Source of the DNA: an uncultured Rhodospirillaceae bacterium
GTDB lineage: Bacteria > Pseudomonadota > Alphaproteobacteria > UBA8366
Length of the DNA stretch: 55,856 nucleotides
Direction: 5' to 3'
Assembly: GCA_964585785.1 (NCBI GenBank)
Contig: CAZPFL010000005.1
Location: forward strand, 1-55,856
The notes under the pieces were generated by a model. The model worked only from the letters and a program-made list of their open reading frames with translations. It was not told the DNA's origin and did not search any database. Shown in pieces: positions 17,117 through 35,806 of the stretch; position 1 is the stretch's first letter, and every line of letters begins with the position of its first letter. A program made the position numbers and the translations under genes.

Positions 17117-17584
17117 TTATGCCGCCCCCGCGGCGCCGAGCCGGGCGTGCGCTTCGCGCAGCCGCGCGGTCGTCACCTCGAGACGGCGCGCCAGCTCGCG
17201 CATCATTTCGACGGCCATCTCGGGGAATTCCGCGAGCAGGGTGAAGAAGCGGTCCTTGGTGATGCGGAGCGCCACCAGCTCGCCGGCGGCCTTGACCGTG
17301 GCCGTGCGGGGCACGTCGCAAAGGATCGCGATTTCGCCCACGATCTCGTGTTCGTTGATGGTGGCAATCTCCAGGTTGCCGGTCGGCGTCTCGATTTCGA
17401 CCGTGGCGGAGCCGCTGAGAATGAAATAGGCGGCATCCCCCGCCTGCCCTTGCTTGAACAGCACGTCGTCCGCCGCGAAGACCAGGCGGTCGCTGGTAAA
17501 GGCCAAAAGCTTGAGGCGCGCCGGATCGATCTTCGAAAACAGCGGCACCCGGCGCAGCAGATGGACTTCTTCCTGCAGGGTCAT
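17117..17584 (-). CDS. Stand-alone cyclic nucleotide-binding domain protein (no HTH)
   Basis: 155 aa; LFKQGQAGDAAYFILSG, phosphate-binding cassette GEIAILCDVPRTATV. Confidence 0.92.
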   Translation of the reverse strand: MTLQEEVHLLRRVPLFSKIDPARLKLLAFTSDRLVFAADDVLFKQGQAGDAAYFILSGSATVEIETPTGNLEIATINEHEIVGEIAILCDVPRTATVKAAGELVALRITKDRFFTLLAEFPEMAVEMMRELARRLEVTTARLREAHARLGAAGAA

Positions 17585-17598
17585 GGCCGTTCCCTCTT

Positions 17599-20256
17599 TC
17601 ATGCCACGTCCAAAAGCCGGGACAGGTTGCCGCCGGCCTCCGAAAGCGTCTCGAAGCTGCCTTGCTCCGCGACCTTGCCGTCCTTCATGACAATGATTTG
17701 GTCAAACTCGCGCCCGGCGACAAGGCGGTTGGTCACCCAGACGACGATCCGGCCTTGGCATTCTGCCAGCACGTTGTGCAGCACGCGCCGCTGGCTCTGG
17801 GCGTCGAACACCTCGACCGCCTCATTGACGACCAGAAGATCGGGCCGCTTCAACAGCGCCCGGCCGAGCGCGACCTTCTGGCGCTGCATGAAGGAGAGCC
17901 GCGCCCCGCCGATGCCGACCGGCGCGTGCAGCCCGACCTCGATGATCGTCTCGCGCAGGGCGAGATCGTCGACGACGGTCTGGAGGAGCTTGCCCACCGT
18001 CTGCTCCGCATAGGCCTGGCCGTGCACCAGCTTGCCGAACAGGATGTTGTCCTGGATCGTCGCCGCTGCGTTGTAGCTCTGCTCGTCGAAGAAGGCGATC
18101 GCGCCCTTGAGCGCGGCCGGCAGGCCCTCCGCGAAGGCATGGCGCGCCGCCAGGATGCGCTCCTGCATCGACGCATCGATCAGGCCGAGCCGGTGCCGCT
18201 CCGCGATCAGCATGAAAGGCAGCGAGAGTAGCCGCAGCCGATCCTCATGCGACAGCGCCATGCCGCGCGACGCCTGCGTCACCAGCTGACGGTAGGCCGG
18301 CAGGTCGTGCGACGCGATGAAGCTGTATTGTTGGAAGAACTCATGGTCCGCCGGCAGGTCCGCGAATATCTCGATCATCGTCTCGGCAACCTTGCGGCCA
18401 ATCTCGATGAAATCGGCCGTCAGCCCGGCCCGATCGAGGACGCTCTGGACATAGGGATGCTCGGCGAGACGGTCCATGTCGAAGCGCATGTCGAGCGGCG
18501 CGCCGAAGAGCAAGTTTTCGCCCACCGTCGCGTTCCCGTTGTAACGCGTCTTGTCGAAGGGCTCGACGAGATGAGCCACCGCCGGGTCCTTCATACGGCT
18601 TCGCATCGCGCTGCGGGCGCGCAGGATCTTGGCGGCCGTCTCCGCGTGAATGTCGGGGTCGATGCAGCCGCGCAGCCCCATGGCATAGACGTCTTCGTCG
18701 AGATCGACGATGCCGAGCACCTCGACGGTGCGCCGACGCAGCGCGTCCGGGCCATCGACCGCCGCCGCGCCGTAGTCGATCCAGTCGGCGCCATAGTCGA
18801 AAGGTGAGTTGCCGGTGCGGGTCGCCTCATCCAACGCCGCCCCATGGCGCGTGGCAGTTCCACCCTCGGAGCCGGATTCCAGCGCCGGGGGATGATTCTT
18901 GAGGCCGTAAATCAGGTTCTCGCCGACGCTGGCGTTATTCAGATGCGTGTTGGCGCCGACATAGCCGACCCGCCGGCCTGTCGCCGCCCAGGGCAGACTT
19001 GCAAGGTCGCGCCCGCCAATCACGATCTTGCCGTGGGTCGGCCCCTGCAGGCGGGCAAGCAGCATGGCGAGCTCGCTCTTGCCGCTCGCGGCGTCGCCGA
19101 TGATCGCCGCATGGCTCGCGGCGGGCAGCGTCAGCGACGCGCCGTCAAGCCGGCGCACGCCGTCCTCGTCGATCAGGGTCACATTGACCACCGTCTCGCC
19201 GTCGAGGCGCAGCGTCCCCGCTCCTTCGTCCAGCCCCGGCGTCATGACCATGAGATCCGCCGGGTTGAATTGCTCGATCACCTGTTCGTATTTGACCTTC
19301 ACGTCCTCTTTCTGCTGGTACCAGACCAGCATTTCCCGCCAGGGTCCGGCGAGGTCCTTATACGCGGCCAGCACGGCGATCAGCGCGCCCAGCGTCAAAT
19401 CCCCGTCGATCACCAGGTACCCGCCGATCGAGAAGAAGAAGAATGGCGTCAGTTTGTCGATGAAGTTATTGATGAACTTGATGAAAAACTTGCGTCGGAA
19501 AATCTCGAACCGGATCGAATAGATCCGCCCGAGCCGCTGGGTGAAGCGGGCAAGCTCAAACGCCAGGGTATCGTTGGCGCGGACTTCGACGATGCCGAGC
19601 ACGGACTCGCCGATATGGTCCGACAGGCGGCGGACATTCTGGATGCGCTGTTTAGCGAGCCGGTTCACACGGCGCTGCATTTTCGGGATCAGGTAAATCT
19701 GAAACGGGTAGAAGAGGATCGCCGCGAGGCCGAGCAGCGGGTCTTGCAGGACGATAAAGCTCAGGATGATCACCAGCTGCCCGCCGAAGAACATCGGGTC
19801 GGCGTAAGCGGTGCCGATAAATCCGCCGAGCGGCTCGACCTCGGCGGTGATGATGGGAATGATCTCGCCCTGGCCGAGCCTGCGGAAGCGCGGCAGCGGG
19901 AAACGCAGCATCCGCTCGTAAAGCTGATACCGCAGGCGGCGCAGCAACCGCTCGCCGAGCTGCCCCTTGAACACGTTGATATGGTACTTGAACGCCCCAT
20001 TCACGAGGACGAGGAGCAGGTAGGTGAAGCTCAGAATGAGCAGATACTCGATCTGCGAGCTGTCCACCTCGGTCTTGAAGCCCATCAGCCGAAGCGTGAA
20101 GGGCGGGCCATGGCCTTGAATCGCCTCGTTGACGATGATCTTCGGCAACTCCAGCGACATGAATAGAAAGGGATAGGAGGCGACCGTAACGACCACCAGA
20201 TACAGCTGCTGCGGTGAGCTGTACCGCAGAATATATCGGAAGATCGAGTTTTCCAT
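17599..20256 (-). CDS. ABC exporter (TMD plus expanded, degenerate NBD)
   Basis: N-terminal ABC membrane domain; Walker A GDAASGKS; signature LSFMQRQK; Walker B-like LLVVNEA; large insertion inside the NBD. Confidence 0.88.
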   Translation of the reverse strand: MENSIFRYILRYSSPQQLYLVVVTVASYPFLFMSLELPKIIVNEAIQGHGPPFTLRLMGFKTEVDSSQIEYLLILSFTYLLLVLVNGAFKYHINVFKGQLGERLLRRLRYQLYERMLRFPLPRFRRLGQGEIIPIITAEVEPLGGFIGTAYADPMFFGGQLVIILSFIVLQDPLLGLAAILFYPFQIYLIPKMQRRVNRLAKQRIQNVRRLSDHIGESVLGIVEVRANDTLAFELARFTQRLGRIYSIRFEIFRRKFFIKFINNFIDKLTPFFFFSIGGYLVIDGDLTLGALIAVLAAYKDLAGPWREMLVWYQQKEDVKVKYEQVIEQFNPADLMVMTPGLDEGAGTLRLDGETVVNVTLIDEDGVRRLDGASLTLPAASHAAIIGDAASGKSELAMLLARLQGPTHGKIVIGGRDLASLPWAATGRRVGYVGANTHLNNASVGENLIYGLKNHPPALESGSEGGTATRHGAALDEATRTGNSPFDYGADWIDYGAAAVDGPDALRRRTVEVLGIVDLDEDVYAMGLRGCIDPDIHAETAAKILRARSAMRSRMKDPAVAHLVEPFDKTRYNGNATVGENLLFGAPLDMRFDMDRLAEHPYVQSVLDRAGLTADFIEIGRKVAETMIEIFADLPADHEFFQQYSFIASHDLPAYRQLVTQASRGMALSHEDRLRLLSLPFMLIAERHRLGLIDASMQERILAARHAFAEGLPAALKGAIAFFDEQSYNAAATIQDNILFGKLVHGQAYAEQTVGKLLQTVVDDLALRETIIEVGLHAPVGIGGARLSFMQRQKVALGRALLKRPDLLVVNEAVEVFDAQSQRRVLHNVLAECQGRIVVWVTNRLVAGREFDQIIVMKDGKVAEQGSFETLSEAGGNLSRLLDVA

Positions 20257-20307
20257 GGATCGCAGACCGGCCGCCCTCCGGTAAGCCGCAAACATGCGGC
20301 ATGCCGC

Positions 20308-20323
20308 TTAAAATTAACTTAAC
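20308..20323. promoter_or_regulatory. CtrA-type box TTAA-N7-TTAAC in the divergent promoter
   Basis: TTAAAATTAACTTAAC between the ABC exporter (-) and the glycosyltransferase operon (+). Confidence 0.65.
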
Positions 20324-20427
20324 CCACGGTGGAACTAGGGTAAATGCGCCCTTTGGCGGCCCGAACAGCCCTTTTGTCGGAGCGGGACCCGTGCCATAGT
20401 CCGCCAGCTTCGACGGGGGTTTTCGCG

Positions 20428-21657
20428 ATGGTACAGCCCGGACGGCGCAAGCGGGTGCTCGTCTACAGCCACGATTCCTTCGGTCTCGGCCATCTCAGGC
20501 GCTGCCGGGCGATCGCGCAGGGGCTCGTCGCCGCGGACCCGGAGGTATCGGTCCTGATCCTCTCCGGCTCCCCGATCATCGGCCGCTTCGATTTCGGCGA
20601 GCGCATCGATTTCGTTCGCATTCCCGGCATCATCAAGCTCGAAAACGGCGAATACACGACGCTGGCGCTTGGCACCGACCTCGAACAGACGCTGGCGATG
20701 CGCGAGGCGATCATCCGTCATACCGCGCTCGCCTACGACCCTGACCTCTTCATCGTCGACAAGGAGCCGCTCGGTCTTCGCGGCGAAGTGCGCGAGACGC
20801 TCATGCTGCTGCGCGGCCGCGGCTGTCCCGTCGCGCTTGGTCTGCGCGACGTACTGGACGACCCGGCGATGCTGTCGGACGAATGGCAGCGCAAAGGCGC
20901 CGACGCGGCGCTCGCCGAGCTGTATGACGAGATCTGGGTCTACGGCCTGCCGCAGATCTGCGATCCGCTGGATGGGCTGCAGTTGCCGCTGTCGGTGCGG
21001 CGCAAAACGGCATTTACCGGATACATCCGCCGCTCGCTGCCGTCGCCGGCAATCCCCGCGAACAACGCGGCGGCACATGTCTTCGGCGAAGACGAGCCTT
21101 TTCTGCTGGTTACCGCCGGCGGCGGCGGCGACGGCGACGCCATGCTGGATTGGGTCCTGCGTGCCTACGAGTCCGGCGCCGCGCTGCCCTGCCGGCCGCT
21201 CTTCGTGCTTGGGCCGTTCATGCCGGCCGACCGCCAGCAGCATCTGCGGAGCCGTATCCAGGCGGTGCCCGGCGCCGGCGCGATCACCTTCGACGCCTAC
21301 CTCGAGACGTTGATCGACCGCGCTACCGCGGTCGTGACCATGGGCGGGTACAACACCTTCTGCGAAGTGCTGTCCTTCGACAAGCCGGCGCTGATCGTGC
21401 CGCGCGAGCGGCCGCGGCAGGAACAGCGCATCCGCGCCGAACAGGCGGCCGCGCTCGGCCTCGCCACGATGCTGCGCGCAACAGGCCCGCTCGATGCAGC
21501 GACGATGGTCACCGCGCTCCGCCAGCTCAGCCAGCAACCGCCGCCGTCGCAGAGCGTCGTGCCGGGGCTGCTGGACGGGCTGGACAATGTGCAGCGGTTG
21601 GCGCGCCGGATCATGAGCCGCCCGACCGGCGCGCTCGTCGCCATCGCGGGTACCTGA
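20428..21657 (+). CDS. Predicted GT-B glycosyltransferase (COG4671 / GT28-C-like)
   Basis: VLVYSHDSFGLGHLRR, LLVTAGGGGDG, MGGYNTFCE, VPRERPRQEQRIRA. Confidence 0.88.
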   Translation: MVQPGRRKRVLVYSHDSFGLGHLRRCRAIAQGLVAADPEVSVLILSGSPIIGRFDFGERIDFVRIPGIIKLENGEYTTLALGTDLEQTLAMREAIIRHTALAYDPDLFIVDKEPLGLRGEVRETLMLLRGRGCPVALGLRDVLDDPAMLSDEWQRKGADAALAELYDEIWVYGLPQICDPLDGLQLPLSVRRKTAFTGYIRRSLPSPAIPANNAAAHVFGEDEPFLLVTAGGGGDGDAMLDWVLRAYESGAALPCRPLFVLGPFMPADRQQHLRSRIQAVPGAGAITFDAYLETLIDRATAVVTMGGYNTFCEVLSFDKPALIVPRERPRQEQRIRAEQAAALGLATMLRATGPLDAATMVTALRQLSQQPPPSQSVVPGLLDGLDNVQRLARRIMSRPTGALVAIAGT

Positions 21658-21670
21658 GGCGGAGCGCGTC

Positions 21671-22930
21671 GTGATGACCGTTGCGATCGTCGTCAAAGGC
21701 TACCCCCGGCTCTCGGAAACCTTCATCGCGCAGGAAATCCGGGGGCTGGAAAAGCGCGGCCTCGACCTCAGGATCGTGTCGCTGCGCCATCCGACCGATC
21801 CGGCGCGCCACCCGGTCCACGACGAGATCGCCGCGCCGGTCACCTATCTTCCGGAATACCTCTGGCAGGAGCCGCTGCGCTGTTTTCGCGCCTGGCGCCG
21901 CGCGCGGAAGATGCCTGGCTACCGCGCCGCGCGCGCCGCTTTCCTCGCCGACCTCCGCCGCGATCCGACGCCGAACCGCGTCCGGCGCTTCGGTCAGGCC
22001 TGCGTCCTCGCCGCCGAGCTGGACGGACGCATCGACTGGCTGCATGCGCATTTCCTGCACACGCCCGGCTCGGTCGCCCGCTATGCCGCCCGCCTGCAGG
22101 GCCTTCCTATCAGCCTGTCCGGCCACGCCAAGGACATCTGGACCACGCCGGACTGGGATCTCGCGGCGAAGCTGCGGGACGCCGCCTGGACCGTCACCTG
22201 CAGCGAGGCCGCCGCCGCGCGGCTGCGCGCGCTTGCGCCGGGGAAGACCGTCGAGGTGATGTATCACGGCCTCGACCTGACGCGCTTTTCCCCCAACGAC
22301 CCGCCGATCGCGCCGCGTGACGGCAGCGACCCGAATGACCCGGTCCGGCTCATCGTCGTCAGCCGCGCGGTCGAGAAGAAAGGCCTCGACCTGCTGCTCG
22401 CCGCCCTGGCGACGCAGCCCCCGGCCGTGGCCTGGCGCCTTACCCATGTCGGCGGCGGCCCCGACCTGCCGGCGCTGCGCCGGCAGGCGGCAGAGCTCGG
22501 CATCGCGGAGCGGATCGCCTGGCTCGGCGCACAGCCGCAAACCCGGGTTCTCGCCGCGTTGCGGCAGGCGGAACTGTTCGTTCTGCCGTCGCGGATCGCG
22601 GCGAGCGGCGACCGCGACGGCCTGCCCAATGTGCTGATGGAAGCCCAGAGCCAGGCATTGCCCGTGGTGGCGACGCGGCTGTCCGCGATCCCCGAGCTGG
22701 TCCTCGACGGCGAGACGGGGCTCCTCGTCCCGCCGGACGACACGGACGCACTGGCGGACGCGCTCCGACGGCTGATCGGCGACCCCCGGCTGCGCAACGC
22801 CCTCGGCCGGGCCGGGGCGCAGCGTGTCCGCGCCCACTTCGACTGCGAGCCCTGGCTCGACCAACTGGCGGCGCGCCTCGAGCCGTCCTTGCGCACGGCC
22901 GGCCAGCGTAACGGTGCGAGGGCTGCCTGA
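21671..22930 (+). CDS. Glycosyltransferase family 4
   Basis: KGYPRLSETFIAQEI, HAHFLH, SRAVEKKG, DGLPNVLMEA. Confidence 0.92.
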   Translation: MMTVAIVVKGYPRLSETFIAQEIRGLEKRGLDLRIVSLRHPTDPARHPVHDEIAAPVTYLPEYLWQEPLRCFRAWRRARKMPGYRAARAAFLADLRRDPTPNRVRRFGQACVLAAELDGRIDWLHAHFLHTPGSVARYAARLQGLPISLSGHAKDIWTTPDWDLAAKLRDAAWTVTCSEAAAARLRALAPGKTVEVMYHGLDLTRFSPNDPPIAPRDGSDPNDPVRLIVVSRAVEKKGLDLLLAALATQPPAVAWRLTHVGGGPDLPALRRQAAELGIAERIAWLGAQPQTRVLAALRQAELFVLPSRIAASGDRDGLPNVLMEAQSQALPVVATRLSAIPELVLDGETGLLVPPDDTDALADALRRLIGDPRLRNALGRAGAQRVRAHFDCEPWLDQLAARLEPSLRTAGQRNGARAA

Positions 22931-24054
22931 TGCATGTTGCGTTCTATGCCCCGATGAAGCCGCCGGACCACCCGGTACCATCGGGCGACCGGCGCATGGC
23001 GCAGCTGCTGGTCCGCGCGCTGCGGATGGGTGGCCATCGCGTCTCGCTCGCTTCGCGCTTTCGCAGCTATGACGGCACCGGCGACGCAGGCGCGCAGCGG
23101 CGCATCCACACGGCGGCACGGCGCATCGCCGCGCGCTATGCGGCGCGACGACGGCGGGATCCGCCCGACTTGTGGTTCACCTATCACTGCTACCACAAGG
23201 CGCCCGACCACATCGGTCCGCGGGTCGCGGACGCGCTTGGCATTCCTTTGGTGATCGCCGACGCGAGCGTCGCGCCGAAACAGGCCGGCGGCCCGTGGGC
23301 GACGGGCTATGCGGCGGCGAACGCGGCGGTGCGGCGCGCCGACCGGATCATCGCCTTCGATCCGCTCGACGTTCCCTGCGTCACCGCCCTGCGCGCGGGA
23401 CAAACGCCGGTTACGACGCTGCCGCCCCTGGCCGATCCTTCGCCGGCTAAGAATGAAGCCCACAGCGCGGCCCGGCGCCAACTAGCGGCGGCGCTCGGCC
23501 TCGATCTATCCCTGCCCTGGCTCGCCGTGACGGCGATGATGCGCCCCGGCGCGAAATGTCTTTCCTACGAGGTCCTTGCGCGCGCGATGCGACGCATTGC
23601 CGACCGGCCCTGGGCGCTGCTCGTCGCGGGCGACGGCCCGGCCCGGCCCGCGGTCGAGGCGTCTTTCGCCAGACTTGATCGCGTGCGCTTCCTTGGCCAG
23701 CTCGACGAAGCGGCCGTGCGCCGCCTGCACCTTGCGGCGGATCTCACGGTCTGGCCGGCCGTCGACGAGGCGTATTGCATGGCGCTCGTCGAGGCGCAGG
23801 CCGCGGGGCTGCCAGCCGTCGCAGGCGACCGACCCGGCATTTCCGCCGTGATCGACCATGAAACGACGGGGCTGCTGACGCCCGTCGGCGACGACAGCGC
23901 CTTCGCCCGCGCCGTCGCCGCGCTGATCGACGATCCGTCGCGGCGCCAGGCCCTGGCGGCCGCCGCGGCGCGCGCCGCCCATCGTTTCGATCTCGCGCGC
24001 GCGGCGCGTCGGATCGATGCGGTGCTGGCCGACGCGCGGCAAGGCGTCCGGTGA
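22930..24054 (+). CDS. Glycosyltransferase family 4
   Basis: FYAPMKPPDHPVPSGDRRMA, EAYCMALVEAQAAGLP. Confidence 0.9.
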   Translation: MHVAFYAPMKPPDHPVPSGDRRMAQLLVRALRMGGHRVSLASRFRSYDGTGDAGAQRRIHTAARRIAARYAARRRRDPPDLWFTYHCYHKAPDHIGPRVADALGIPLVIADASVAPKQAGGPWATGYAAANAAVRRADRIIAFDPLDVPCVTALRAGQTPVTTLPPLADPSPAKNEAHSAARRQLAAALGLDLSLPWLAVTAMMRPGAKCLSYEVLARAMRRIADRPWALLVAGDGPARPAVEASFARLDRVRFLGQLDEAAVRRLHLAADLTVWPAVDEAYCMALVEAQAAGLPAVAGDRPGISAVIDHETTGLLTPVGDDSAFARAVAALIDDPSRRQALAAAAARAAHRFDLARAARRIDAVLADARQGVR

Positions 24055-24061
24055 CGCGGCC

Positions 24062-24658
24062 ATGACCAAGCTCGTGCTCATCCGCCACGGATCGACCGAC
24101 TGGAACGAAAGCCGGCTGGTCCAGGGCCGCAGCGACATCGCCTTAAGCGCCGGCGGACGCGCCGAGGTCGAGACCTGGCAACTGCCGGCCGAGTTCACGT
24201 CTTTCGATTGGGTCGCGAGTCCGCTCCGGCGCGCCCGAGAAACGGCGGAGATCCTGCGCGGCGCGCCCGTTCCGACCGACGAAAGGCTGGTCGAAATGGA
24301 CTGGGCCGATTGGGAAGGCCGCACGCTCGAGGATCTCAGGGCGGAAATCGGCCACCTGATGACCGCCTGGGAAGCGCGCGGCCTCGACTTTCGCGCCCCC
24401 GGCGGCGAGAGCCCGCGCGAGGTCCAGGCGCGGCTGCGGCCCTTCCTGGTGGAGCGCGCGCGGGCGAAACGGCCGACGGTCGCGGTCTGCCACCGGGGTG
24501 TCATCCGCGCGGTCTACGCGCTGGCGATCTCTTGGGACATGACCAGCAAGGCGCCGCGCCGGCTGGCAGACGGCTGCGCGCAGGTCTTCACGCTGGCCGA
24601 GGACGGCACGCCCAGCGTGCACGAGCTCGACCGGCCGCTCGACGCGGGATCGTCATGA
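24062..24658 (+). CDS. Histidine phosphatase (phosphoglycerate mutase family)
   Basis: LIRHGSTDWN, SPLRRARET, LVEMDWADWEG, VCHRGVIR. Confidence 0.92.
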   Translation: MTKLVLIRHGSTDWNESRLVQGRSDIALSAGGRAEVETWQLPAEFTSFDWVASPLRRARETAEILRGAPVPTDERLVEMDWADWEGRTLEDLRAEIGHLMTAWEARGLDFRAPGGESPREVQARLRPFLVERARAKRPTVAVCHRGVIRAVYALAISWDMTSKAPRRLADGCAQVFTLAEDGTPSVHELDRPLDAGSS

Positions 24659-25821: not shown

Positions 25822-26067
25822 GAATGGCGTCATGCCCCATATAGTCGGCGCCACCATGGCCGAACGCGAACCCAGCGGGTGGCGGGCTTCGTCGGCATGG
25901 GCCGGAAGCAGCGTTTCATTAATCCTTCGCGGCAATCATGGCGGCGATGGGCGAAGCGTTGCGAAACGGATCAGCGGCGGCCGGAGCGAAAGCGCCGTTG
26001 CCGCGACCGATTGGTCGTGGCGATGCCGCGCGTCCAACGGCCGGACAGGAGCTGGAAACGGCAACGC

Positions 26068-26585
26068 ATGATGTATCACCGCTACCCGCTGCGCAGCCTG
26101 ATCTGGGACTATTGCCGCACCGGCGCGGGCTTGACCATTGCCCTGGTTCCCCTGCTGCTGGGCAAGCCCGGATCGGTGCTTTCCACGCTGCTCATCGTCC
26201 TTGCGTTGCTGTTCCTCGGCTACGGCCTGCGCACGGTGCGCCAGCACATGACGGCCTACGAGATCAGGCCCGACGGCATCGCCAGCTACGGACCCGTCAA
26301 GCGTTTCTTTGCCTGGGACGCGATCAAGCGCATCCATCTGCGCTATTATTCGACGGCGCGCGACAAGAATCGCCGCGATCTCAAGCACGGATGGCTTGAA
26401 TTGAAGATCACCGCGCGAACGGGCAAGCTGCGTATCGATTCGGAGGTCGACGGCTTTCCGGTGATCCTCGATGCGGTCGCCAACGCAGCGTTGGAGCGGC
26501 AGATCGATATCGACGAGACGAGCCAGGAGAATCTGAAAGCGTTTCGCGGCGCCGCGCCGGCCGTCCCGACCCAAGGCGGAGACGA

Positions 26586-26589: not shown

Positions 26590-28492
<1,903 letters not shown>

Positions 28493-28496
<4 letters not shown>

Positions 28497-30427
28497 CGGC
28501 CGGGGTCGCCCTTCTTTTCGCGCTCGCCGCGGCGCTTGTCCTGCCGGCGGAAGCGCACGCGCGCGGTCCCTATATCGAGCCGCCGATGCTGGCCGCCGAA
28601 GTCGCGGCGGGCAAGCTGCCGCCGGTCGCCGAGCGGCTGCCGAAGGACCCGTCGGTCGCCGCCTTCGCGCGGCCGGGGCAGACGCCGGGACGCTATGGCG
28701 GAACGCTCCGGATGCTGATGGCGCAGCCGCGCGACGTGCGGCTGATGGTCGTCTACGGCTACGCCCGCCTCGTGCGCTTCAATTACAAGCTCGACATCGT
28801 GCCGGACATTCTTGAGAAGGTCGACGTCAAGGACGGCCGCATCTTCACGCTGCATCTGCGCCCCGGCCATCGCTGGTCGGACGGCGTGCCCTTCACGGCG
28901 GAAGACTTCCGCTATTATTGGGAGGACGTCGCCAACAACCCGAAGCTTTCGCCGGTCGGCCCGCCGGAGGTGATGCGCGTCGACGGCAAGCTGCCGCGTT
29001 TCCAGGTCATCGACCCGTATACCGTGCGCTACAGCTGGGACAAGCCGAACCCGGAGTTCCTTCCGGCGCTCGCCGGCGCGCGGCCGCCCTTCATTTACCG
29101 CCCGGCGCATTACTTGAAGCGGTTCCACGGGCGCTACTTCGACCCGGCGGCGCTCGACAAGCTCGCGAAGGAGCGCGGCTTCCGCGGCTGGCCGGCGCTC
29201 CACAACAAGATGGACAACCCGGACAAGAACGATAATCCCGACCTGCCGACGCTCCAGCCCTGGGTGCTGACCACCGCCATGCCGGCCGACCGTTTTATTT
29301 TCGTCCGCAATCCGTATTTCCACCGGGTCGACCCGAACGGCCGCCAGCTGCCCTACATCGACCGCGTGGTGATGGATGTGGTCGACGGCAAGATCGTGCC
29401 GGCGAAGACCGGCACCGGCGATTCCGACCTGCAGGCGCGCTATCTCCGCTTCGACAACTTCACCTTCCTGCGCAAGAACGCGAAGACGGCCGGCTTTGCC
29501 GTGTATCTCTGGCGCATCGGCCGCGGCGCGCATATGGCGCTCTATCCCAACCTCAATGTCGAGGACCCGGTCTGGCGGCACTTGCTGCGCGACGTCCGGT
29601 TCCGCCGCGCGCTGTCGCTCGCGGTCAACCGGCATGAGATCAATCGTGTGATGTATTACGGCCAGGCGATCGAGAGCCAGAACACCGTCCTGCCCGAGAG
29701 CCCGCTGTTCAAGCCGTCCTACCAGACGAGCTGGGCCTCGTTCGACCTCGCCAAGGCCAACAAGCTGCTCGACGAAATCGGTCTGACCCGCCGCGACAGC
29801 CAGGGCATCCGCCTGCTGCCGGACGGGCGACCGGCCGCCATCATCGTCGAGACGACCGGCGAAAGCTCCGAGGAATCGGACGTGCTGCAGCTCGTGCACG
29901 ACAGCTGGCTGCAGGCCGGGATAAAGCTTCTCATCAAACCGTCGCACCGCGACGTCGTGCGCAACCGCATCTACGCGGGCAAGACGGTCATGGCGCTATT
30001 CCCCGGGCTGGAAAACGGCATCGCGACCGCAGACACGAGCCCGCAGGAGCTCGCGCCGGTTCATCAGACGCAGTATCAATGGCCGAAATGGGGCCAGTAT
30101 GCGGAAACCGACGGCAAGGCCGGGCTGCCGCCCGACATGCCGGCGGCGAAGAAGCTGCTGAGTTTGCTCGACGCCTGGAACAGCGCGACGACGCGATTGG
30201 AGCGTACGCACATCTGGTCGCAGATGCTGGCCATCCACGCCGACCAGGTCTTCACCATCGGGCTGATCTCCGGCACCTTGCAGCCGGTGGTGGTCAACCG
30301 GCGCCTGCGGAACGTCCCCGAACACGGCCTGTACAACTGGGACCCGGGGGCGCATTTCGGAATCTACGAGCCCGATACCTTCTGGTTCGACACGCCGGAA
30401 CAGGTGACGGAAGGGCGCCGACCGTGA
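28493..30427 (+). CDS. ABC transporter substrate-binding protein, family 5
   Basis: Signal peptide, GKLPPVAERLP, LRPGHRWSDGVPFTAED, RNPYF..VD..G.QLPYID. Confidence 0.93.
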
Positions 30428-30484
30428 TACGCGGCGTTTCCCGTCGCGGCGATCAGGCCGGCCGATAGAACGCAGGACCGCTCG

Positions 30485-31483
30485 ATGCTCGGATACACCG
30501 TCCGGCGCGTATTGATGATGATCCCGACGCTGCTCGCGATCAGCGCGATCGTCTTCGTCATCATCCAGCTGCCGCCCGGCGATTATTTCACCTCCTACCT
30601 GAATGAGTTGCAGAGCCGCGGCGAGTCGGTTGATCCGAACAAGATCGCCTTCTTGAAAGAGCAATATGGCTTCGACAAGCCGCTCTACCAGCAATATCTC
30701 TACTGGGTTGGCGGGCTGCTGCACGGCGACATGGGCTATTCCTTCGAGTACGATCTGCCGGTACGCACGGTCGTCGGCGACAGGCTGCTGCTCACCTTCG
30801 TCGTCTCGTTCACGACGATCCTCTTCACCTGGCTCGTCGCATTTCCGATCGGCGTCTACACCGCGGTCCGGCAATACAGCGTCAGCGATTATTCCCTCAC
30901 CTTCCTCGGCTTCATCGGCCTGGCGACGCCGAATTTCTTGCTGGCGCTGGTGTTGCAATATCTCGCGCATGTCTGGTTCGGCGCCTCGATCGGCGGGCTG
31001 ATGGACGCGCAGTATATCGACGCGAGCTGGAGCTGGGCGAAAGTAGGCTCGGTTTTGGCGCATCTCTGGATTCCGGTCATCGTCATCGGCACCTCCGGCA
31101 CCGCGGGCATGATCCGGCGCCTGCGCGCCAACCTGCTCGACGAGCTGCAGAAGCAATATGTCGTGACCGCGCACGCCAAGGGCATGCCGCCGCTGCGCGC
31201 GCTCTTGAAATATCCGCTTCGCATGGCGCTCAACCCGTTCATCGCCGACATCGGCAATCTTCTGCCGCAGGTGATTTCCGGCGCGGCGATCGTATCGGTC
31301 GTGCTGTCGCTGCCGACGACCGGGCCGATGCTGCTGCGCGCGCTGCAGAGTCAGGACATGTATCTCGCGGGCAGCTTCCTGATGTTCCTCGCCACGCTCA
31401 CGGTGATCGGCACGCTGCTGTCCGATCTCGCGCTGGCGGCGCTCGATCCGCGCATTCGGTTCACCGGACAGGCGGCGTCATGA
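30485..31483 (+). CDS. ABC importer permease (DppB/OppB-like)
   Basis: QLPPGDY, GDMGYSF, EAA-like loop YVVTAHAKG, LDPRIR. Confidence 0.94.
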   Translation: MLGYTVRRVLMMIPTLLAISAIVFVIIQLPPGDYFTSYLNELQSRGESVDPNKIAFLKEQYGFDKPLYQQYLYWVGGLLHGDMGYSFEYDLPVRTVVGDRLLLTFVVSFTTILFTWLVAFPIGVYTAVRQYSVSDYSLTFLGFIGLATPNFLLALVLQYLAHVWFGASIGGLMDAQYIDASWSWAKVGSVLAHLWIPVIVIGTSGTAGMIRRLRANLLDELQKQYVVTAHAKGMPPLRALLKYPLRMALNPFIADIGNLLPQVISGAAIVSVVLSLPTTGPMLLRALQSQDMYLAGSFLMFLATLTVIGTLLSDLALAALDPRIRFTGQAAS

Positions 31484-32658
31484 ACGACGCGTCGGACCCG
31501 CTGCCGCACTACGTCAACCGCGCGCCCTACGACCCGGATGCGGCGGAGCCGATGAGCGCGGCGCAGCGCCGCTTCTACAGCGCGTCGCAATGGACGCTGA
31601 TGTGGTGGAAGCTGCGGCGCCACCGGGTCGCCGTCGTGTCGGGCGCCTTTCTGCTTCTGCTCTATCTCGCCGCGGCCTTCGCGGAGGTTATCGCGCCCTA
31701 CGACCTGCAATCACGGCACACCGAGTACCTCTTCGCGCCGCCGCAGCGCGTTCACCTGTTTCACGATGGCGCGCTCACCGGTCCTTACGTCTACGGCCTG
31801 TCGGTGCGGCTCGACCTCGACAACATGCGCTGGGTCTATTCCGAGGATCGCACGCAGATCCACCGGCTGCGCTTTTTCTGCACCGCGGATGATTATCCCG
31901 GCGCGCGCTACAGCTTCTGGAACCTGTTCGAGACGTCTTTCCATTTGGTCTGCCCGGCGCCCGGCGGACAGCTCTTCCTGCTCGGCACCGACCGGCTCGG
32001 CCGCGACATGTTCTCGCGCATCGTCTATGGCGCGCGCATCTCGCTGACCATCGGTCTTCTCGGCATCTCCATCAGCCTGCTGCTCGGCGTCGTCATCGGC
32101 GGTATCGCCGGTTACTGGGGCGGCATTGTCGACATCTTGGTGCAGCGCTTGATCGAGGTGGTCCGCTCCTTTCCCGAGCTGCCGCTGTGGATGGCGCTCT
32201 CGGCGATCCTGCCGGTCACCTGGAGCCCGATCGCCGTCTATCTCGGCATCACCGTCATCCTGGGCCTGCTCGACTGGCCGGGTCTGGCGCGCGCGGTCCG
32301 CTCGAAGCTGCTCGCGCTGCGCGAGGAGGATTTCTGTCTCGCCGCGCAGCTCATGGGGGCGAGCCCGCCGCGCATCATCTTCCGTCATCTGCTGCCAAGC
32401 TTCTCGAGTCATCTGATCGCTTCGGCGACACTGTCGATCCCGTCGATGATCCTGGCGGAGACGGCGCTCAGCTTTCTCGGTCTCGGCCTCCGCCCGCCGA
32501 TCACGAGCTGGGGCGTCCTGCTGAACGAGGCGCAGAACATCAACGTCGTCGCGCTCTACCCCTGGCTCATGCTGCCGGTCGTTCCGGTCATTTTGGTGGT
32601 GCTGGCGTTCCAGTTCCTGGGCGACGGGTTGCGCGACGCGGCCGACCCGTATCGCTAA
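31480..32658 (+). CDS. ABC importer permease (DppC/OppC-like)
   Basis: LGTDRLGRDMFSR, AAQLMGAS, ETALSFLGLG, GDGLRDAADP. Confidence 0.94.
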   Translation: MNDASDPLPHYVNRAPYDPDAAEPMSAAQRRFYSASQWTLMWWKLRRHRVAVVSGAFLLLLYLAAAFAEVIAPYDLQSRHTEYLFAPPQRVHLFHDGALTGPYVYGLSVRLDLDNMRWVYSEDRTQIHRLRFFCTADDYPGARYSFWNLFETSFHLVCPAPGGQLFLLGTDRLGRDMFSRIVYGARISLTIGLLGISISLLLGVVIGGIAGYWGGIVDILVQRLIEVVRSFPELPLWMALSAILPVTWSPIAVYLGITVILGLLDWPGLARAVRSKLLALREEDFCLAAQLMGASPPRIIFRHLLPSFSSHLIASATLSIPSMILAETALSFLGLGLRPPITSWGVLLNEAQNINVVALYPWLMLPVVPVILVVLAFQFLGDGLRDAADPYR

Positions 32659-32665
32659 CGCACGG

Positions 32666-34018
32666 TCATCGCGCCAGCACGACGACGTCGACGGGCGCCT
32701 CGACACCCGCTACCTGGCTCGCCGGGCGGCGCTCGGGCGACGTCGCCGCGCGGTAGCCCTGCGCTTCGGCGAGCGCATAGGTCGCGGCGTCCGTGACCGC
32801 GCGCGTGCCGCACTGGCTGTTGTATTTCTCCAGCTTGGCGGAAAGGTTCACCGGCTCGCCGATGCAGGTGAATTCGAGCCGGGTATCCGCGCCGATTGCG
32901 CCAAAGATGATGCGCCCGCTGGTGACCGCGACGCCGATGCGTACCGGCGGCAGGCCCGCCTCCGCGCGGCGCTCTGCCCACGCGTCGGCTGCGGCAATGA
33001 TATCCGCCACGGCGCGCAGCGCATCGGCCGCATAGGTTTCGCTCAACACCGCCGCGCCGAAGGAAGCCAGGATGCCGTCGCCGAGGAACTTGTCGACCGT
33101 GCCGCCGTGTTTCTCGATGACCGGCACCAGCAGCGCCTGATACTCGGTGAGCAGCGCGATGAGCTCGGTCGGGCTCAGCCTGTTCGACAGCGCGGTAAAG
33201 CCACGGACATCGACCGACAGGATTGCCGCCGTCCGCGCCTCGCCTTCGCCGGCGCGGATCGCATGGTCTGATTGGGTGATCTGCCGCGCGATCTCGGGCG
33301 AGAAGAAACGCGACAGGTCGTGGGCCGCCGCCGTTTCGGCGACGGACCGCTCGAGCAGCCGCCGCGCGCGCGTCAGCGCCACGGCGATGATGCCGGTGAC
33401 CAGCAGGATCGATAACACCTTGTCGAACTCCGCGCCGAGCAACACGGAGTTCGAGGTCAGATAGGTCACGTAGTTCCGCGTGATCATCGTATCGGGATAT
33501 TCGGTCGTCACCGTGTAGAGCACGAGCAGCAGCCAGCACAGCGCGGCCGTCGCGCCGCACATCAGCACGTAGCGCGGCTCGAACCGAAGCGCCCGAAGCG
33601 CGATGAAGATGAAGACGTAAAGGAGCGTCGGCACCTTCAATGAAAAGGACGCCGGCTGGTGGTATTCCAGGTGGAAGCTCCAGATCAGCACGACCAGGAG
33701 CGCGACGTCGATGACGGCGGACAGGCCCGGCAGCCAGCGCGCCGACGCACGGCGCTCGGCGAGCGAGAGCCGCAGCAAGGTGAACAGGAAGTAGAAGGTC
33801 AACGCCAGCGCGGCGGGCGTCAGGAACGGGTTGTCGGGTGACGTCTTGGGCGAGATCGCATACAGCACGCCCATGATCGTCACGATCGCGAGCTGGAACC
33901 AGACAATCAGCTTTTCGCTGTCCTGCTGCTGACGCTGAATCGCAAGGCGCACGCGGTCGGGAACGGCGGTGCCGCCCTCGCCGAAGACGAACCGGGCGAT
34001 GCCTCCTCCGAGCGTCAT
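32666..34018 (-). CDS. Membrane-bound class III adenylate/guanylate cyclase
   Basis: About 6 N-terminal TM helices; ILSVDVRGFT, VDKFLGDG, FTCIGEPVNLSAKLE; ATGA overlap with the upstream methyltransferase. Confidence 0.93.
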   Translation of the reverse strand: MTLGGGIARFVFGEGGTAVPDRVRLAIQRQQQDSEKLIVWFQLAIVTIMGVLYAISPKTSPDNPFLTPAALALTFYFLFTLLRLSLAERRASARWLPGLSAVIDVALLVVLIWSFHLEYHQPASFSLKVPTLLYVFIFIALRALRFEPRYVLMCGATAALCWLLLVLYTVTTEYPDTMITRNYVTYLTSNSVLLGAEFDKVLSILLVTGIIAVALTRARRLLERSVAETAAAHDLSRFFSPEIARQITQSDHAIRAGEGEARTAAILSVDVRGFTALSNRLSPTELIALLTEYQALLVPVIEKHGGTVDKFLGDGILASFGAAVLSETYAADALRAVADIIAAADAWAERRAEAGLPPVRIGVAVTSGRIIFGAIGADTRLEFTCIGEPVNLSAKLEKYNSQCGTRAVTDAATYALAEAQGYRAATSPERRPASQVAGVEAPVDVVVLAR

Positions 34019-34947
34019 GGCTTTCTCACTCTGCTGCATGAAGCGCGATCTTCCGACATCTGTTCCTCTCCCGGAGACGCGGCCGCTTGTTCGCCGCCGC
34101 CGCGAGACCTCAGCCAGAGGCTCGCTTCAAAGGCACTCGGTAGCAGCGTCAGCGCGCCCGCCGCGCTCCGCGCGACCGCATCGCCAAAGCGGGTCACAGC
34201 GTAATGCGAGGCAAACTCGATACGCCAGCCGGCCTGGACGATCAGCAGCGCGACCGCCGACTGCTCGTTATAGCCGCGCCACGACCACGTCTCGGGATAG
34301 GGGTCGGGCAGAAAGATGTCGTGGAAATGCACGAGCACGCCCGCCGGCAGGATCGGCAGCACGGCGTTCAGCAGGAAGTCGACGTCGCTGCCCGGCATCA
34401 GCACATGGCCGGAGTCGATGCTGAGAATGTCGCCGGCACGCAGCGCGCGGAAGGGCGCGAGACCCGCCTGCTGCACCGGCGACTGAAGCGTCCGCAATCT
34501 GGGCAGCCCGGCGATGGACGCCCGCGGCGCCGGATCGATCGACAGAATATCGGTGTCGAGCGCTTCGTCCTGCGCTGCGCGGCAAAAGAAACGCGTCGAA
34601 TGCCCGCTGCCGATCTCGACGATGCGCCGCGGCCGCCGGCTCCGGATCATCGCATAGGCGATTGCCGCATCGAGACGGGGGAACCAGTCCTGCGTCCAGC
34701 GCGGCGCCGGCGGACCGTCCTGTCCGATCGCCCGCAGCGCCGCCGCATACGCGTCGAGACGCGCGAGCCAGTCGCGCATCGCCGCCGCACGCGCGGCGAA
34801 ACACGCGTCCAGGAGCGGCGACCGGCAGACCGCCGCATCCGCGTGCACGGCCTGAAGGCTCGGCGCGAAATACCCTCGCTTGCGGAGTCCGCTCACCGTC
34901 TGAAGGCCGAACCAGAAGCGCCGCAGCCGACCGCGTACCGGATTCAT
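34015..34947 (-). CDS. Class I SAM-dependent methyltransferase (Methyltransf_24-like)
   Basis: RIVEIGSGHST, SIDP, SIDSGH, HFHDIFLP, YNEQ. Confidence 0.85.
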   Translation of the reverse strand: MNPVRGRLRRFWFGLQTVSGLRKRGYFAPSLQAVHADAAVCRSPLLDACFAARAAAMRDWLARLDAYAAALRAIGQDGPPAPRWTQDWFPRLDAAIAYAMIRSRRPRRIVEIGSGHSTRFFCRAAQDEALDTDILSIDPAPRASIAGLPRLRTLQSPVQQAGLAPFRALRAGDILSIDSGHVLMPGSDVDFLLNAVLPILPAGVLVHFHDIFLPDPYPETWSWRGYNEQSAVALLIVQAGWRIEFASHYAVTRFGDAVARSAAGALTLLPSAFEASLWLRSRGGGEQAAASPGEEQMSEDRASCSRVRKP

Positions 34948-34972
34948 CGCCTGCTCCCGCGCCGCGCGGCGG

Positions 34973-35806
34973 TCACGGCATCAGCACCATGCCTTCGCGC
35001 GCGACCACCGTTCCCGGCCGGATCTTCTCCGCCGCCGCGGCGATGGCGTCCATCTGGTCGTCGTCGTGGTTGGGGTCGTGGTGAAAAATCACCAGCGTCC
35101 TGGCACCCGCCGCCTCGACCAGCCGCACGCCTTCCTGCCACGTTGAATGGCCGAAGCCGCGGTATCGCGAATACTCCTCGTCGGCATAGGTCGAATCATA
35201 GATCACCATGTCGGCGCCGCGGATGAGGTTGACGATATTTTTGTCGCGCTTGCCGTCCTCATGCTCGGTGTCGGTGACATAGCAGATCGACCGCCCGTCG
35301 AACTCGACGCGGTATCCGGTCGCCCGGTTCGGGTGATTGAGCGGCGCGGTGCGGATGGTGATGCCGTCGCCGGGCGACAGCACGTCACCGGTCGAGAAAT
35401 CGTGAAACTCCACATCCGCCTTGAATGCGGATGGCGGGATCGGAAAGAGCGGTGCCATCATCATTTCCATCAGCACGCGCTGAAGGTCCGTATCGGGCAC
35501 CAGATGCCCCGCCGCCAGCCGGATCTTGTTGCCGACCGTATACAGCGGCGCGAAGAACGGCAGGCCGCAGATGTGATCGAAATGCGTGTGCGTCAGGTAC
35601 AGCTCGGCGTCGATCGGTGTGCTTCCGTCAAGCTCGTTGCCGAGATCGCGTAGCCCGGTACCGGCATCGAAGATGAGAAGCCGGCCGCCGCAGCGCATCT
35701 CGAGACATGAGGTGTTGCCGCCGTAGCGCACCGTTCGCGGCCCCGGGCAGGCGATGCTGCCTCTCACCCCCCAGAACTTCACATAAAAGTCCGTTGTATC
35801 GGACAT
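34973..35806 (-). CDS. MBL-fold metallo-hydrolase (putative cyclic-nucleotide phosphodiesterase)
   Basis: FWGVRGSI, YGGNTSC, FDAGTG, THTHFDH, TDTEH, GHST, FHHDP. Confidence 0.88.
   Translation of the reverse strand: MSDTTDFYVKFWGVRGSIACPGPRTVRYGGNTSCLEMRCGGRLLIFDAGTGLRDLGNELDGSTPIDAELYLTHTHFDHICGLPFFAPLYTVGNKIRLAAGHLVPDTDLQRVLMEMMMAPLFPIPPSAFKADVEFHDFSTGDVLSPGDGITIRTAPLNHPNRATGYRVEFDGRSICYVTDTEHEDGKRDKNIVNLIRGADMVIYDSTYADEEYSRYRGFGHSTWQEGVRLVEAAGARTLVIFHHDPNHDDDQMDAIAAAAEKIRPGTVVAREGMVLMP

Follow-up and report, generated by a model that had tools for sequence, protein, structure and literature searches.

RESULTS

Gene Content and Organization of the Locus

The DNA analyzed here, referred to as the window, is the whole of a 55,856-bp contig (C5) from the 407-contig draft genome of an uncultured Rhodospirillaceae bacterium (G000; 5.19 Mb, 93% complete). 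The subject of this study is an 18.7-kb locus at positions 17117–35806 that encodes glycosyltransferases (GTs), a solute importer, an ATP-binding cassette (ABC) protein, a putative cyclic nucleotide monophosphate (cNMP)-binding protein, a nucleotide cyclase, and a hydrolase of the metallo-β-lactamase (MBL) fold. Filtering of open reading frames (ORFs) by GC content at the third codon position, combined with Pfam and NCBIfam scans, gives 15 genes in three units. One minus-strand unit holds the ABC gene followed by the cNMP gene. The plus-strand unit (20344–32658) comprises, in order, GT1a, GT4a, GT4b, a histidine phosphatase, GT1b, a small membrane protein, the importer ATPase, a solute-binding protein (SBP), and two permeases, and the majority of its junctions are overlaps or gaps of 1–13 nt. 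As read from the coordinates, GT1a and GT4a are 13 nt apart, GT4a and GT4b overlap by 1 nt, GT4b and the phosphatase gene are 4 nt apart, and the phosphatase gene and GT1b overlap by 4 nt, in agreement with the tight coupling of the GT genes described in an earlier note on this DNA. The genes for the MBL protein, a methyltransferase, and the cyclase share the minus strand, separated by a 25-nt gap and then an overlap, and the cyclase gene converges on the importer operon with 7 nt between the stop codons. The flanks of the locus are housekeeping genes, for FtsK, an ammonium transporter (Amt), exonuclease III, LeuRS, and MnmG.

Every gene listed in the earlier note was recovered where it had been placed, on the evidence of Pfam, NCBIfam, and the translations. 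This includes the full family-5 importer, of which SBP_bac_5, two BPD_transp_1 permeases, and an oligo_HPY-tailed ATPase are all present. The inventory had overlooked the small membrane protein (26068–26589) and the absence of a CE4-fold gene. The statement that Wzx, Wzy, and Wza are missing holds for the 30 window ORFs scanned against Pfam, none of which belongs to these families or is a priming transferase; the window holds further ORFs. Judged from these 30 ORFs, the locus does not appear to be a Wzx/Wzy- or Wza-dependent exopolysaccharide (EPS) cluster.

Conservation of the Gene Set

GT1b was used as the anchor gene in every locus comparison. Its orthologs (E ≤ 1e-40) occur in 36 of 41 relatives, from six families of the order. 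When 20-kb regions from 20 relatives were searched with the 15 window proteins, the cNMP and ABC genes were each found in 19, the four-gene importer in 18, GT1a in 17, the methyltransferase and MBL genes in 16 each, and the cyclase in 11, and the gene order was nearly always that of the window. A search of one-genome-per-species contigs with the GT1b profile (A1) gave at least 594 related stretches, of which the best 80 were taken; removal of three duplicates left 97 unique loci (20 from relatives and 77 further), and 63 of these span at least 20 kb. Within the Alphaproteobacteria, the best 80 stretches come from Inquilinus, Sneathiella, Dongia, Kiloniellales, Rhizobium, Pararhizobium, Agrobacterium, Mesorhizobium, Phyllobacterium, and many metagenome-assembled genomes; beyond that class, they come from the Gammaproteobacteria Marinobacterium and Pokkaliibacter and from metagenome-assembled Burkholderiales. 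The carriers span marine, soil, and host-associated lineages, as judged from record titles. A sampling of 201 genomes (184 genera) of the class showed GT1b orthologs at E ≤ 1e-60 in 70 genomes and 64 genera.

The 63 longer loci contain the cNMP gene in 58 cases and the ABC gene in 56, with both together in 55. GT1a is present in 58, GT4a in 59, GT4b in 55, and the histidine phosphatase in 48, and the complete four-gene importer is present in 51 (each permease in 58) and the small membrane protein in 44. The importer is thus linked to the GT genes as tightly as the GT genes are linked to one another. The counts for MBL (33), methyltransferase (31), six-transmembrane (six-TM) cyclase (22), and any cyclase (28) are undercounts because these genes fall at the +10-kb limit of the retrieved sequence. 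Loci of Rhizobiaceae begin with a different cyclase, followed by importer, GT1a, GT4a, GT1b, ABC, cNMP, a 598-residue metallophosphoesterase, and MBL, so that the importer is upstream of the GT genes, and in Marinobacterium-type loci blocks are inverted with the genes still together. The same gene set is found on Sinorhizobium meliloti pSymB.

The co-occurrence of the cyclase, MBL, and cNMP genes with the GT and ABC genes, which had been named beforehand as the check, is therefore seen both in relatives and in distant taxa. Synteny that extends to distant taxa and is kept through rearrangement excludes chance adjacency, and the 18.7-kb stretch is almost certainly a single conserved functional unit, not three unrelated operons. 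The locus is widely conserved yet apparently unstudied. The earlier note knew of no characterized pathway with this layout, and literature searches aimed at the locus or its layout (COG4671; cNMP-binding plus ABC plus glycosyltransferase; pSymB), with supplementary tables outside their reach, found no paper. The pSymB clusters treated in the available part of the paper on the Clr regulon are other ones (PMC5498481).

The ABC Protein

The ABC gene (17599–20256, minus strand; the ORF opens at 20295) encodes an exporter-fold half-transporter with a transmembrane domain and a nucleotide-binding domain (NBD), 885 residues long when counted from Met14, which is invariant among orthologs. It matches PF00664 with 82 bits and PF00005 with 57 bits, the latter covering only model positions 1–80 of 137, and the C-terminal part of the NBD is matched at residues 727–895 in NCBIfam. 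The closest solved relatives are generic ABCB-type exporters, with E values down to 1e-63, and the predicted architecture (ABC_membrane plus ABC_tran) is that of a type IV-fold ABC exporter.

A competent NBD has Asp-Glu in Walker B, His in the H-loop, Gln in the Q-loop, and an LSGGQ signature, and a canonical ABC exporter of the same genome, used as the reference for motif comparison, keeps all of these motifs. In the window protein, Walker B has Asn-Glu, the H-loop residue is Asn, the Q-loop residue is Ala, and the signature reads LSFMQ. The same erosion is seen among 70 locus-linked ABC proteins, of which 59 have Asn and 4 have Asp as the Walker B residue. Of the same 70, 11 retain the H-loop His, 15 the Q-loop Gln, 37 the catalytic Glu, 44 the Walker A Lys, and 18 the Ser/Thr that follows this Lys; the Rhizobiaceae forms in loci L090, L112, and L126 are without even the Walker A Lys. 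The transmembrane domain is highly conserved, unlike the motifs of the NBD. These motif states predict an NBD that is not catalytically competent, and the ABC protein is therefore read as a gated downhill conduit, not as the conventional pump implied by the earlier word "exporter."

A further feature of the NBD is an insertion of ∼265 residues (∼470–735; 18091–18888, minus strand) that separates the two halves of the domain match and has many invariant columns. Residues 560–720 align with 715–898 at 31% identity across 54 residues (pairwise E 4e-6), and an N-A-T-V-x-E-N-L-L-F-G-like motif recurs; on this comparison, the insertion looks like a partial duplication of the segment following the Q-loop. 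No family for it was found in Pfam, NCBIfam, or Atlas.

The cNMP-binding Protein and Its Predicted Complex with the ABC Protein

The cNMP gene (17117–17584, minus strand; its ORF opens also at 17602) encodes 155 residues from Met7, with PF00027 (67.3 bits versus a cut-off of 27.5) as the sole domain. In 15 of 16 orthologs, the start is a Met aligned with residue 7 of the window ORF, and the start at 17584 supported by them lies 14 nt after the ABC stop codon, exactly the spacing given previously. The phosphate-binding cassette, Gly89-Glu90…Pro98-Arg99-(Thr100)-Ala101, is invariant or nearly so in 17 orthologs, with Gly89, Glu90, Arg99, and Ala101 invariant and Thr100 nearly so. The residues expected to contact the cNMP are canonical, and the protein has the sequence features of a cyclic-nucleotide-binding (CNB) domain. 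Two assignments were rejected. The protein is not a CRP/FNR transcription factor, since it has no helix-turn-helix and reaches only 45 bits with the CRP model (cut-off 266) through its CNB part, and it is not a member of TIGR03896 (45.7 bits versus a cut-off of 161).

In 66 of 70 loci, the cNMP gene immediately follows the ABC gene in the same orientation; the remaining four, of the Beta/Gamma type, have it not behind the ABC gene but within 1 kb of the six-TM cyclase gene. In Beta/Gamma-type loci, a 242-residue protein without a known family is encoded between the cNMP and six-TM cyclase genes (L108:1974–2702, plus strand; also L069, L098, L114, L117, and L122). A Methyltransf_17 gene adjoins the cNMP gene in 30 of the 63 loci.

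A complex of the ABC NBD (residues 360–898) with the cNMP protein was predicted in three runs using our own alignments. The median ipSAE was 0.69, compared with 0.00 for the best control; in the calibration of the tool, 58 of 80 solved complexes and 2 of 110 mismatched pairs attain this mark, counts that apply only roughly because of the alignments used. Between runs, 86% or more of the contacts agree, and the pLDDT of the partner is at least 83. The predicted interface is formed by ABC residues 639–657, 701–704, and 759–762 and CNB residues 7–12 and 28–48. It falls within the NBD insertion on the invariant residues Thr639, Glu642, Phe644, Phe653, and His701–Leu703, and invariant residues are also present on the CNB side.

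The two proteins also occur as one chain. A paralog of 1066 residues in which ABC and cNMP parts are fused is encoded on contig C32 of the same genome (L133:12457–15657, minus strand), and PF00027 is carried by 48 of its 120 best homolog clusters, 15 of which also carry GGDEF. The members of this ABC-cNMP family bear only generic names in the databases searched, and the family combines an eroded ATPase, an internal NBD duplication, and cNMP, sometimes GGDEF, partners or fusions. On the strength of adjacency (66 of 70), the fused forms, and the complex model, a partnership between receptor and ABC protein is rather likely. The earlier proposal of a cNMP-gated transporter thus keeps its link between the two proteins, supported by adjacency, fusions, and a controlled model, but loses the conventional exporter to the degenerate ATPase motifs.

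The forms bearing GGDEF (PF00990) are ∼1170–1190 residues long (P0020–P0028, P0030, P0031, P0036, P0042, P0045, and P0068); such a chain would join cAMP sensing, cyclic di-GMP synthesis, and an ABC fold in one protein. The gene of the fused paralog overlaps by 8 nt a gene (L133:11295–12464, minus strand) for an HGSNAT_cat protein, similar to transmembrane glucosaminide N-acetyltransferases, and its other neighbors are SecDF, GST, and phytochelatin-synthase-like genes.

Importer and Solute-binding Protein

The importer ATPase (26586–28496, plus strand) has two fused NBDs of the GsiA/YejF type (PF00005 twice, E 2.5e-60, and oligo_HPY) and scores 588 bits with the GsiA model, under its cut-off. 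Both NBD halves are canonical in Walker A, signature, Walker B (Asp-Glu), and H-loop. The SBP (28493–30427, plus strand; PF00496, E 4e-57) has a signal peptide, and the two permeases follow on the same strand at 30485–31483 (PF00528, BPD_transp_1_N) and 31480–32658 (PF00528, OppC_N). These features predict a family-5 SBP-dependent importer of the Opp/Dpp/Gsi type, and no window protein reaches the cut-off of the NCBIfam equivalogs for peptide, nickel, or glutathione importers. The closest solved relatives of the SBP are 5ipw (1e-83), the pectin-binding SPH1118 (4e-77), and an α-galactoside-binding protein (5e-34); peptide and nickel binders match at 1e-9 or weaker, with E values for the peptide binders worse by over 20 orders of magnitude. 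SPH1118 recognizes pectin and not oligopeptides, according to the available part of its description (PMC9314435). The earlier suggestion that a glycoside is taken up again gains support, as the nearest liganded relatives of the SBP bind pectin oligosaccharides and α-galactosides and the ligand of the window protein would then be carbohydrate-like.

Glycosyltransferases and Associated Enzymes

All four GTs are predicted to be cytoplasmic enzymes with a GT-B fold. GT1a (20344–21657, probable start Met29 at 20428) and GT1b (24655–25821) have MurG/GT28-like C-terminal domains (PF04101, E 1.1e-6 and 1.1e-9, respectively), are ∼30% identical to each other, and are both MurG/YjiC-like; the GT1b profile matches MurG and YjiC best, and the match of GT1a to TIGR00661 is partial. 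GT4a (21671–22930; PF13692 and PF00534, E 1e-31) and GT4b (22930–24054; PF13692, E 1.8e-24) are family 4 enzymes. The top NCBIfam matches of GT4a are EpsE (142 bits) and WcaL (106 bits), both under cut-off, and the closest solved relatives of GT4b are BshA, a sucrose-phosphate synthase entry, MshA, and PimA. The histidine phosphatase (24059–24658; PF00300, E 3e-40) belongs to branch 1, and its top solved relative is glucosyl-3-phosphoglycerate phosphatase (GpgP; 7e-13), in a near-tie with phosphoserine, PhoE, and ribazole phosphatases. A specific assignment as GpgP was rejected, the tied top scores leaving it undecidable. All five genes are on the plus strand. The resemblance of GT4b and the phosphatase to enzymes that act on small or phosphorylated acceptors is consistent with the small-glycoside logic that had been proposed for the pairing of GTs with a phosphatase.

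In 77 of the 97 loci, a gene for a putative deacetylase or esterase of the CE4 fold, 260–270 residues long, lies between GT1b and the small membrane protein (for example L039:9229–10047). In the window, it is replaced by a short gap (25822–26067), and a tblastn search over the whole of the source genome gave no match. The closest relatives (L031–L036) have the same short gap, and a σ70-like site (25818–25845) lies in the scar. The predicted structure of the CE4-like protein (pLDDT 88) matches CE4 esterases and deacetylases at E 2e-8 and weaker with TM scores of 0.5–0.68, and no match was found in Pfam, NCBIfam, Atlas families, or PDB sequences. CE4 enzymes have a NodB-type fold with an Asp-His-His metal triad, and Asp49/Asp50, His103, and His107 are invariant in the CE4-like protein. 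Because the gene has been lost here, the product in this bacterium probably differs by an acetyl group.

The small membrane protein (26068–26589, plus strand) has two TM helices predicted by reading of the sequence and a possible bacterial PH-like domain. It has no match in Pfam or NCBIfam, and its Atlas neighbors are unnamed; the nearest named Atlas clusters are bPH families (score 0.93), which is a lead only. The methyltransferase gene (34015–34947, minus strand) encodes a SAM-dependent enzyme of the Methyltransf_24 type (PF13578, E 8.5e-12) with no NCBIfam or PDB sequence match. The type of methyltransferase varies among loci, with Methyltransf_24 in the window, Methyltransf_17 in others, and class I together with FkbM in S. 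meliloti.

The Cyclase and the MBL Hydrolase

The cyclase gene (32666–34039, minus strand) encodes a protein with six TM helices and a class III catalytic domain (PF00211, 34.7 bits versus a cut-off of 21.9; 6TM_PilS, 26 bits versus 27). There are seven PF00211 matches in the 5.19 Mb of the genome, the window cyclase being the weakest (37 bits in the genome scan), so that ∼0.03 cyclase genes are expected by chance per 20 kb; some cyclase is present in 28 of the 63 loci. Its closest solved relatives are Cya2 (2w01, 6fht) and CyaB (3r5g). Class III cyclases have two metal-binding Asp residues, a substrate-selecting Lys with Asp or Thr, and a transition-state Asn. Asp277 and Asp321, Lys317 and Thr391, and Asn398 of the window protein align in Cya2 and CyaB with the metal Asp pair, the ATP-type Lys/Thr, and the Asn, respectively, and these five residues and Lys402 are invariant in nine orthologs, in which the six-TM region and the catalytic domain are equally conserved. 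A class III nucleotide cyclase is predicted from the profile and from the metal, substrate, and Asn residues; the transition-state Arg is absent. In the Rhizobiaceae, a non-orthologous cyclase heads the locus (7 of the 63 loci), and it is annotated as a cyclase in S. meliloti. This recruitment, the position of the cNMP gene behind the ABC gene or near the cyclase, and the excess of cyclases over chance connect the locus with cAMP.

The MBL gene (34973–35806, minus strand; PF12706, E 2.7e-21) encodes a hydrolase of the RNase Z/PhnP/YhfI phosphodiesterase branch in which the motif His73-x-His75-x-Asp77-His78 is invariant. With the predicted structure (pLDDT 85), the top Foldseek matches are RNase Z, YhfI, ELAC1, ZipD, and PhnP (E 2e-14 to 3e-12), and yeast PDE1 is at rank 41. 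The model thus points to an MBL fold of the phosphodiesterase type, in the RNase Z/PhnP-like branch. In Rhizobiaceae-type loci, a 598-residue calcineurin-like metallophosphoesterase is encoded between the cNMP and MBL genes (L126:16267–18063, minus strand; also L087, L090, L093, L109, and L112). The calcineurin-like superfamily includes the class III cNMP phosphodiesterases, and this protein could therefore be the eraser in Rhizobiaceae.

Regulatory Sequence and Neighboring Genes

The ABC gene and GT1a are transcribed divergently from an intergenic region (20257–20427) that contains an AT-rich element, GCTTAAAATTAACTTAACCC, at 20306–20325, which the four closest loci share. About 80 nt downstream of this element, a GTGCCATAGTC-like box shows wider conservation than the element itself. 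Reading of the divergent promoter regions by eye, with no formal motif search, showed no CRP-like palindrome. A scan of the window for promoters and terminators gave no more than the shuffle expectation, with the one exception of the promoter-like σ70-type site in the CE4 scar, and the sole Rfam match in the window was one tRNA, with no riboswitch.

Two genes past the MBL gene, an OmpR-type response regulator is encoded at 37206–37961 (minus strand); 10 other loci have a similar regulator flanking their MBL end, and the regulator could be a transcriptional input to the locus. An extra family 4 GT gene is located 3 kb beyond the locus at 38904–39965 (minus strand), adjoining ORFs without a Pfam match (40434–41423 and 43124–44248).

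DISCUSSION

Proposed Mechanism

From the gene content, we infer a cycle in which a small glycoside is made, released, and taken back. The four GTs and the histidine phosphatase would build a small soluble glycoside or oligosaccharide from an intermediate of the sugar-phosphate type. The methyltransferase possibly O-methylates it, and in most other species, where the gene has not been lost, the CE4 deacetylase would act on it. The product would leave the cell downhill through the ABC exporter-fold conduit with its eroded ATPase motifs, the gate being the stand-alone cAMP receptor docked on the family-specific NBD insertion. The ATP-driven family-5 importer with its carbohydrate-type SBP would then retrieve the compound or its precursor. 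In this genome, the six-TM class III cyclase beside the importer would supply local cAMP, and the co-transcribed MBL phosphodiesterase would remove it or, alternatively, trim a phosphodiester within the product. In energetic terms, the scheme suits an abundant cytoplasmic solute, as in an osmolyte-type cycle, or a signal that is let out and then recovered. The gene content, its conservation as a unit, the motif states, the fused forms, and the fold assignments are observations, and the nature of the product, the direction of flow, gating by cAMP, and the part played by the MBL protein are inferences. The chain as a whole, glycoside synthesis, cAMP-gated downhill release, and ATP-driven recapture, is put forward tentatively and falls somewhat short of probable. 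Its strictest form is unlikely to be right in full; in that form, an ABC protein that does not hydrolyze ATP is itself a cAMP-gated conduit for the glycoside, the receptor clamps the duplicated NBD segment, and the cyclase and importer complete an autocrine circuit.

Several observations weigh against this cycle. The ABC protein, with its eroded ATPase motifs, may transport nothing and could be a sensor or scaffold instead, and its complex with the receptor is a model only, built on our own alignments. In the cyclase, the alignment with 2w01 and 3r5g places the invariant Lys402 where the transition-state Arg of the VNxxxR motif is expected. Moreover, no more than 19 of 41 relatives gave a match to the six-TM cyclase, and six of these (G007, G010, G027, G030, G032, and G034) have it at a distance from the GT1b locus, so that of the self-contained cAMP circuit proposed in the earlier note the cyclase is indeed present here, but a circuit enclosed within the locus is seen in only some genomes. 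The companion proposal, that the MBL protein is the cNMP eraser, retains the co-directional gene and the phosphodiesterase-type fold. It fails at the level of families: the protein matches no class II phosphodiesterase family at E ≤ 0.01, scores 44 bits against 400 for NF041851, and, like the rest of the window, has no match to PF23023 (Apyc1) at E ≤ 1. Its gene is also kept in loci without a cyclase among the regions of the 20 relatives, and a role as eraser is possible but unsupported. On the side of the product, the top match of the phosphatase is not discriminating (51.9 versus 51.5 bits), the top families of GT4a, under their cut-offs, are EPS and colanic-acid enzymes, and GT4 and MurG-like enzymes also build lipid-linked glycans. 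The nearest solved relative of the SBP, 5ipw, is a Thermotoga protein for which no ligand complex is known, according to the part of the SPH1118 paper available (PMC9314435). Finally, the Agrobacterium loci L071, L101, and L105 consist of the importer and three GT genes (GT1a, GT4a, and GT1b), with the ABC and cNMP genes absent within 10 kb.

Alternative Explanations

Some of these observations would be accounted for if the locus made an envelope glycoconjugate, that is, a lipid-linked or periplasmic glycan (a glycolipid, a branch of lipopolysaccharide or EPS, or a glucan resembling osmoregulated periplasmic glucans) that is flipped or exported by the ABC protein in the manner of MsbA, PglK, or NdvA, with its breakdown products recycled by the importer and cAMP merely tuning the process. 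MurG, which GT1a and GT1b resemble, uses a lipid-linked acceptor, and to this and the EPS/colanic-acid likeness of GT4a may be added the top NCBIfam matches of the ABC protein (MsbA, HepA, and glucan exporters, all far under cut-off), the preference of CE4 enzymes for polysaccharides or peptidoglycan, and the further GT4 gene 3 kb away. However, an MsbA- or PglK-type cycle requires the very ATPase motifs that are eroded here, and the 30 scanned ORFs include no acyltransferase in addition to lacking the priming transferase, Wzx, Wzy, and Wza. The histidine phosphatase among the GT genes and the small acceptors used by relatives of GT4b are also at odds with a lipid-linked product, as is an importer linked to the GT genes as closely as they are to one another. 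An envelope product deserves a real but minor share of belief. The minimal Agrobacterium loci fit a pathway that starts from import, in which an exogenous oligosaccharide or glycoside, for instance of plant or algal origin, is taken up and then remodeled or stored by the GTs, phosphatase, deacetylase, and methyltransferase, the ABC and cNMP proteins releasing the product where they are present. The plant-derived pectin oligosaccharides and α-galactosides bound by relatives of the SBP agree with such a source. The locus, however, encodes neither a glycoside hydrolase nor a kinase, lies amid housekeeping genes, and is found alike in marine, soil, and host-associated lineages, and we regard this explanation as quite improbable.

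A neighborhood formed by chance, in which three independent operons (ABC and cNMP; GT genes and importer; MBL, methyltransferase, and cyclase) merely lie side by side, would agree with the three transcription units on two strands and with the lower conservation of the cyclase, methyltransferase, and MBL genes than of all others. This is very hard to credit, as the units co-occur over three proteobacterial classes and survive rearrangement, and non-orthologous cyclases have been recruited to the same locus. The cycle of synthesis, gated release, and recapture can be tested directly, since the locus is present in tractable bacteria (S. meliloti, on pSymB, and species of Rhizobium, Inquilinus, and Marinobacterium).

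Comparison with Known Systems

Small glycosides are made by several routes that join a GT to a phosphatase: GpgS/GpgP for glucosylglycerate, in which the mycobacterial GpgP is a histidine phosphatase, SPS/SPP, and MshA followed by a phosphatase and a deacetylase. The locus resembles them in having a retaining GT4-type enzyme, then a phosphatase, and then, in most loci, a deacetylase, as at the start of the mycothiol pathway. It differs in that all matches score low and do not discriminate, GT81 and GT20 enzymes are missing, and the deacetylase has a CE4 and not an LmbE fold, and in the addition of three further GT genes, the ABC-fold protein, and the importer. Recapture has a parallel in Synechocystis, in which synthesis of the compatible solute glucosylglycerol is combined with ABC-dependent re-uptake; the sequence of making a solute, losing or releasing it, and recovering it through an SBP-dependent importer would be the same, the likeness here being one of gene content. 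We know of no example of solute recapture with a dedicated cAMP receptor on a pseudo-ATPase ABC conduit. SPH1118 and the α-galactoside-binding protein of Agrobacterium belong to the same family-5 sub-group as the window SBP (4e-77 and 5e-34), whose gene context is biosynthetic, not catabolic. The S. meliloti MsbA2 cluster was considered as a further comparison and set aside, as it includes an acyltransferase and arranges its genes differently.

For a CNB domain on an ABC exporter, the nearest precedent is HetC of Nostoc PCC 7120. As described in the available portion of the report, HetC has an N-terminal CNB domain on a peptidase-containing ABC exporter that is needed for function and binds ppGpp in vitro (PMC10986499). 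The attachment of a CNB-type domain to an ABC exporter is what is proposed for the cNMP/ABC pair; as far as that portion goes, HetC differs in its fused N-terminal CNB domain, its ppGpp ligand, its C39-peptidase peptide-exporter type, and an essential ATPase residue. At the locus, the CNB protein is separate (with C-terminal fusion in paralogs), its predicted cAMP contacts are canonical, its predicted docking site is the NBD insertion, and the ATPase is degenerate. TIGR03896 also comprises stand-alone cNMP-binding proteins defined by the neighborhood of an ABC exporter, in a bacteriocin context, whereas the context of the window protein is one of glycosyltransferases.

To our knowledge, CRP-type transcription factors account for nearly all bacterial cAMP effectors described, and direct action of a dedicated cAMP receptor on a membrane conduit would be a further, post-translational kind of output. 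A possibly abundant glycoside may await identification. If the strictest form of the cycle is correct, the circuit would function as an osmolyte valve or a glyco-signal; roughly one in three alphaproteobacterial genera would have it, and S. meliloti would carry it on pSymB.

The closest counterpart in logic is the cystic fibrosis transmembrane conductance regulator (CFTR), an ABC protein that works as a channel, has one degenerate nucleotide site and one that hydrolyzes ATP, and is controlled by cAMP through phosphorylation of its R domain by protein kinase A. The locus would share with CFTR an exporter fold with impaired hydrolysis and downhill flow under cAMP control, as an analogy in which homology is limited to the ABC fold. 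In the bacterial system, cAMP would act through a directly bound receptor protein; were this to hold, the pair would represent a new class of non-transcriptional bacterial cAMP effector and a bacterial counterpart of CFTR in its logic.

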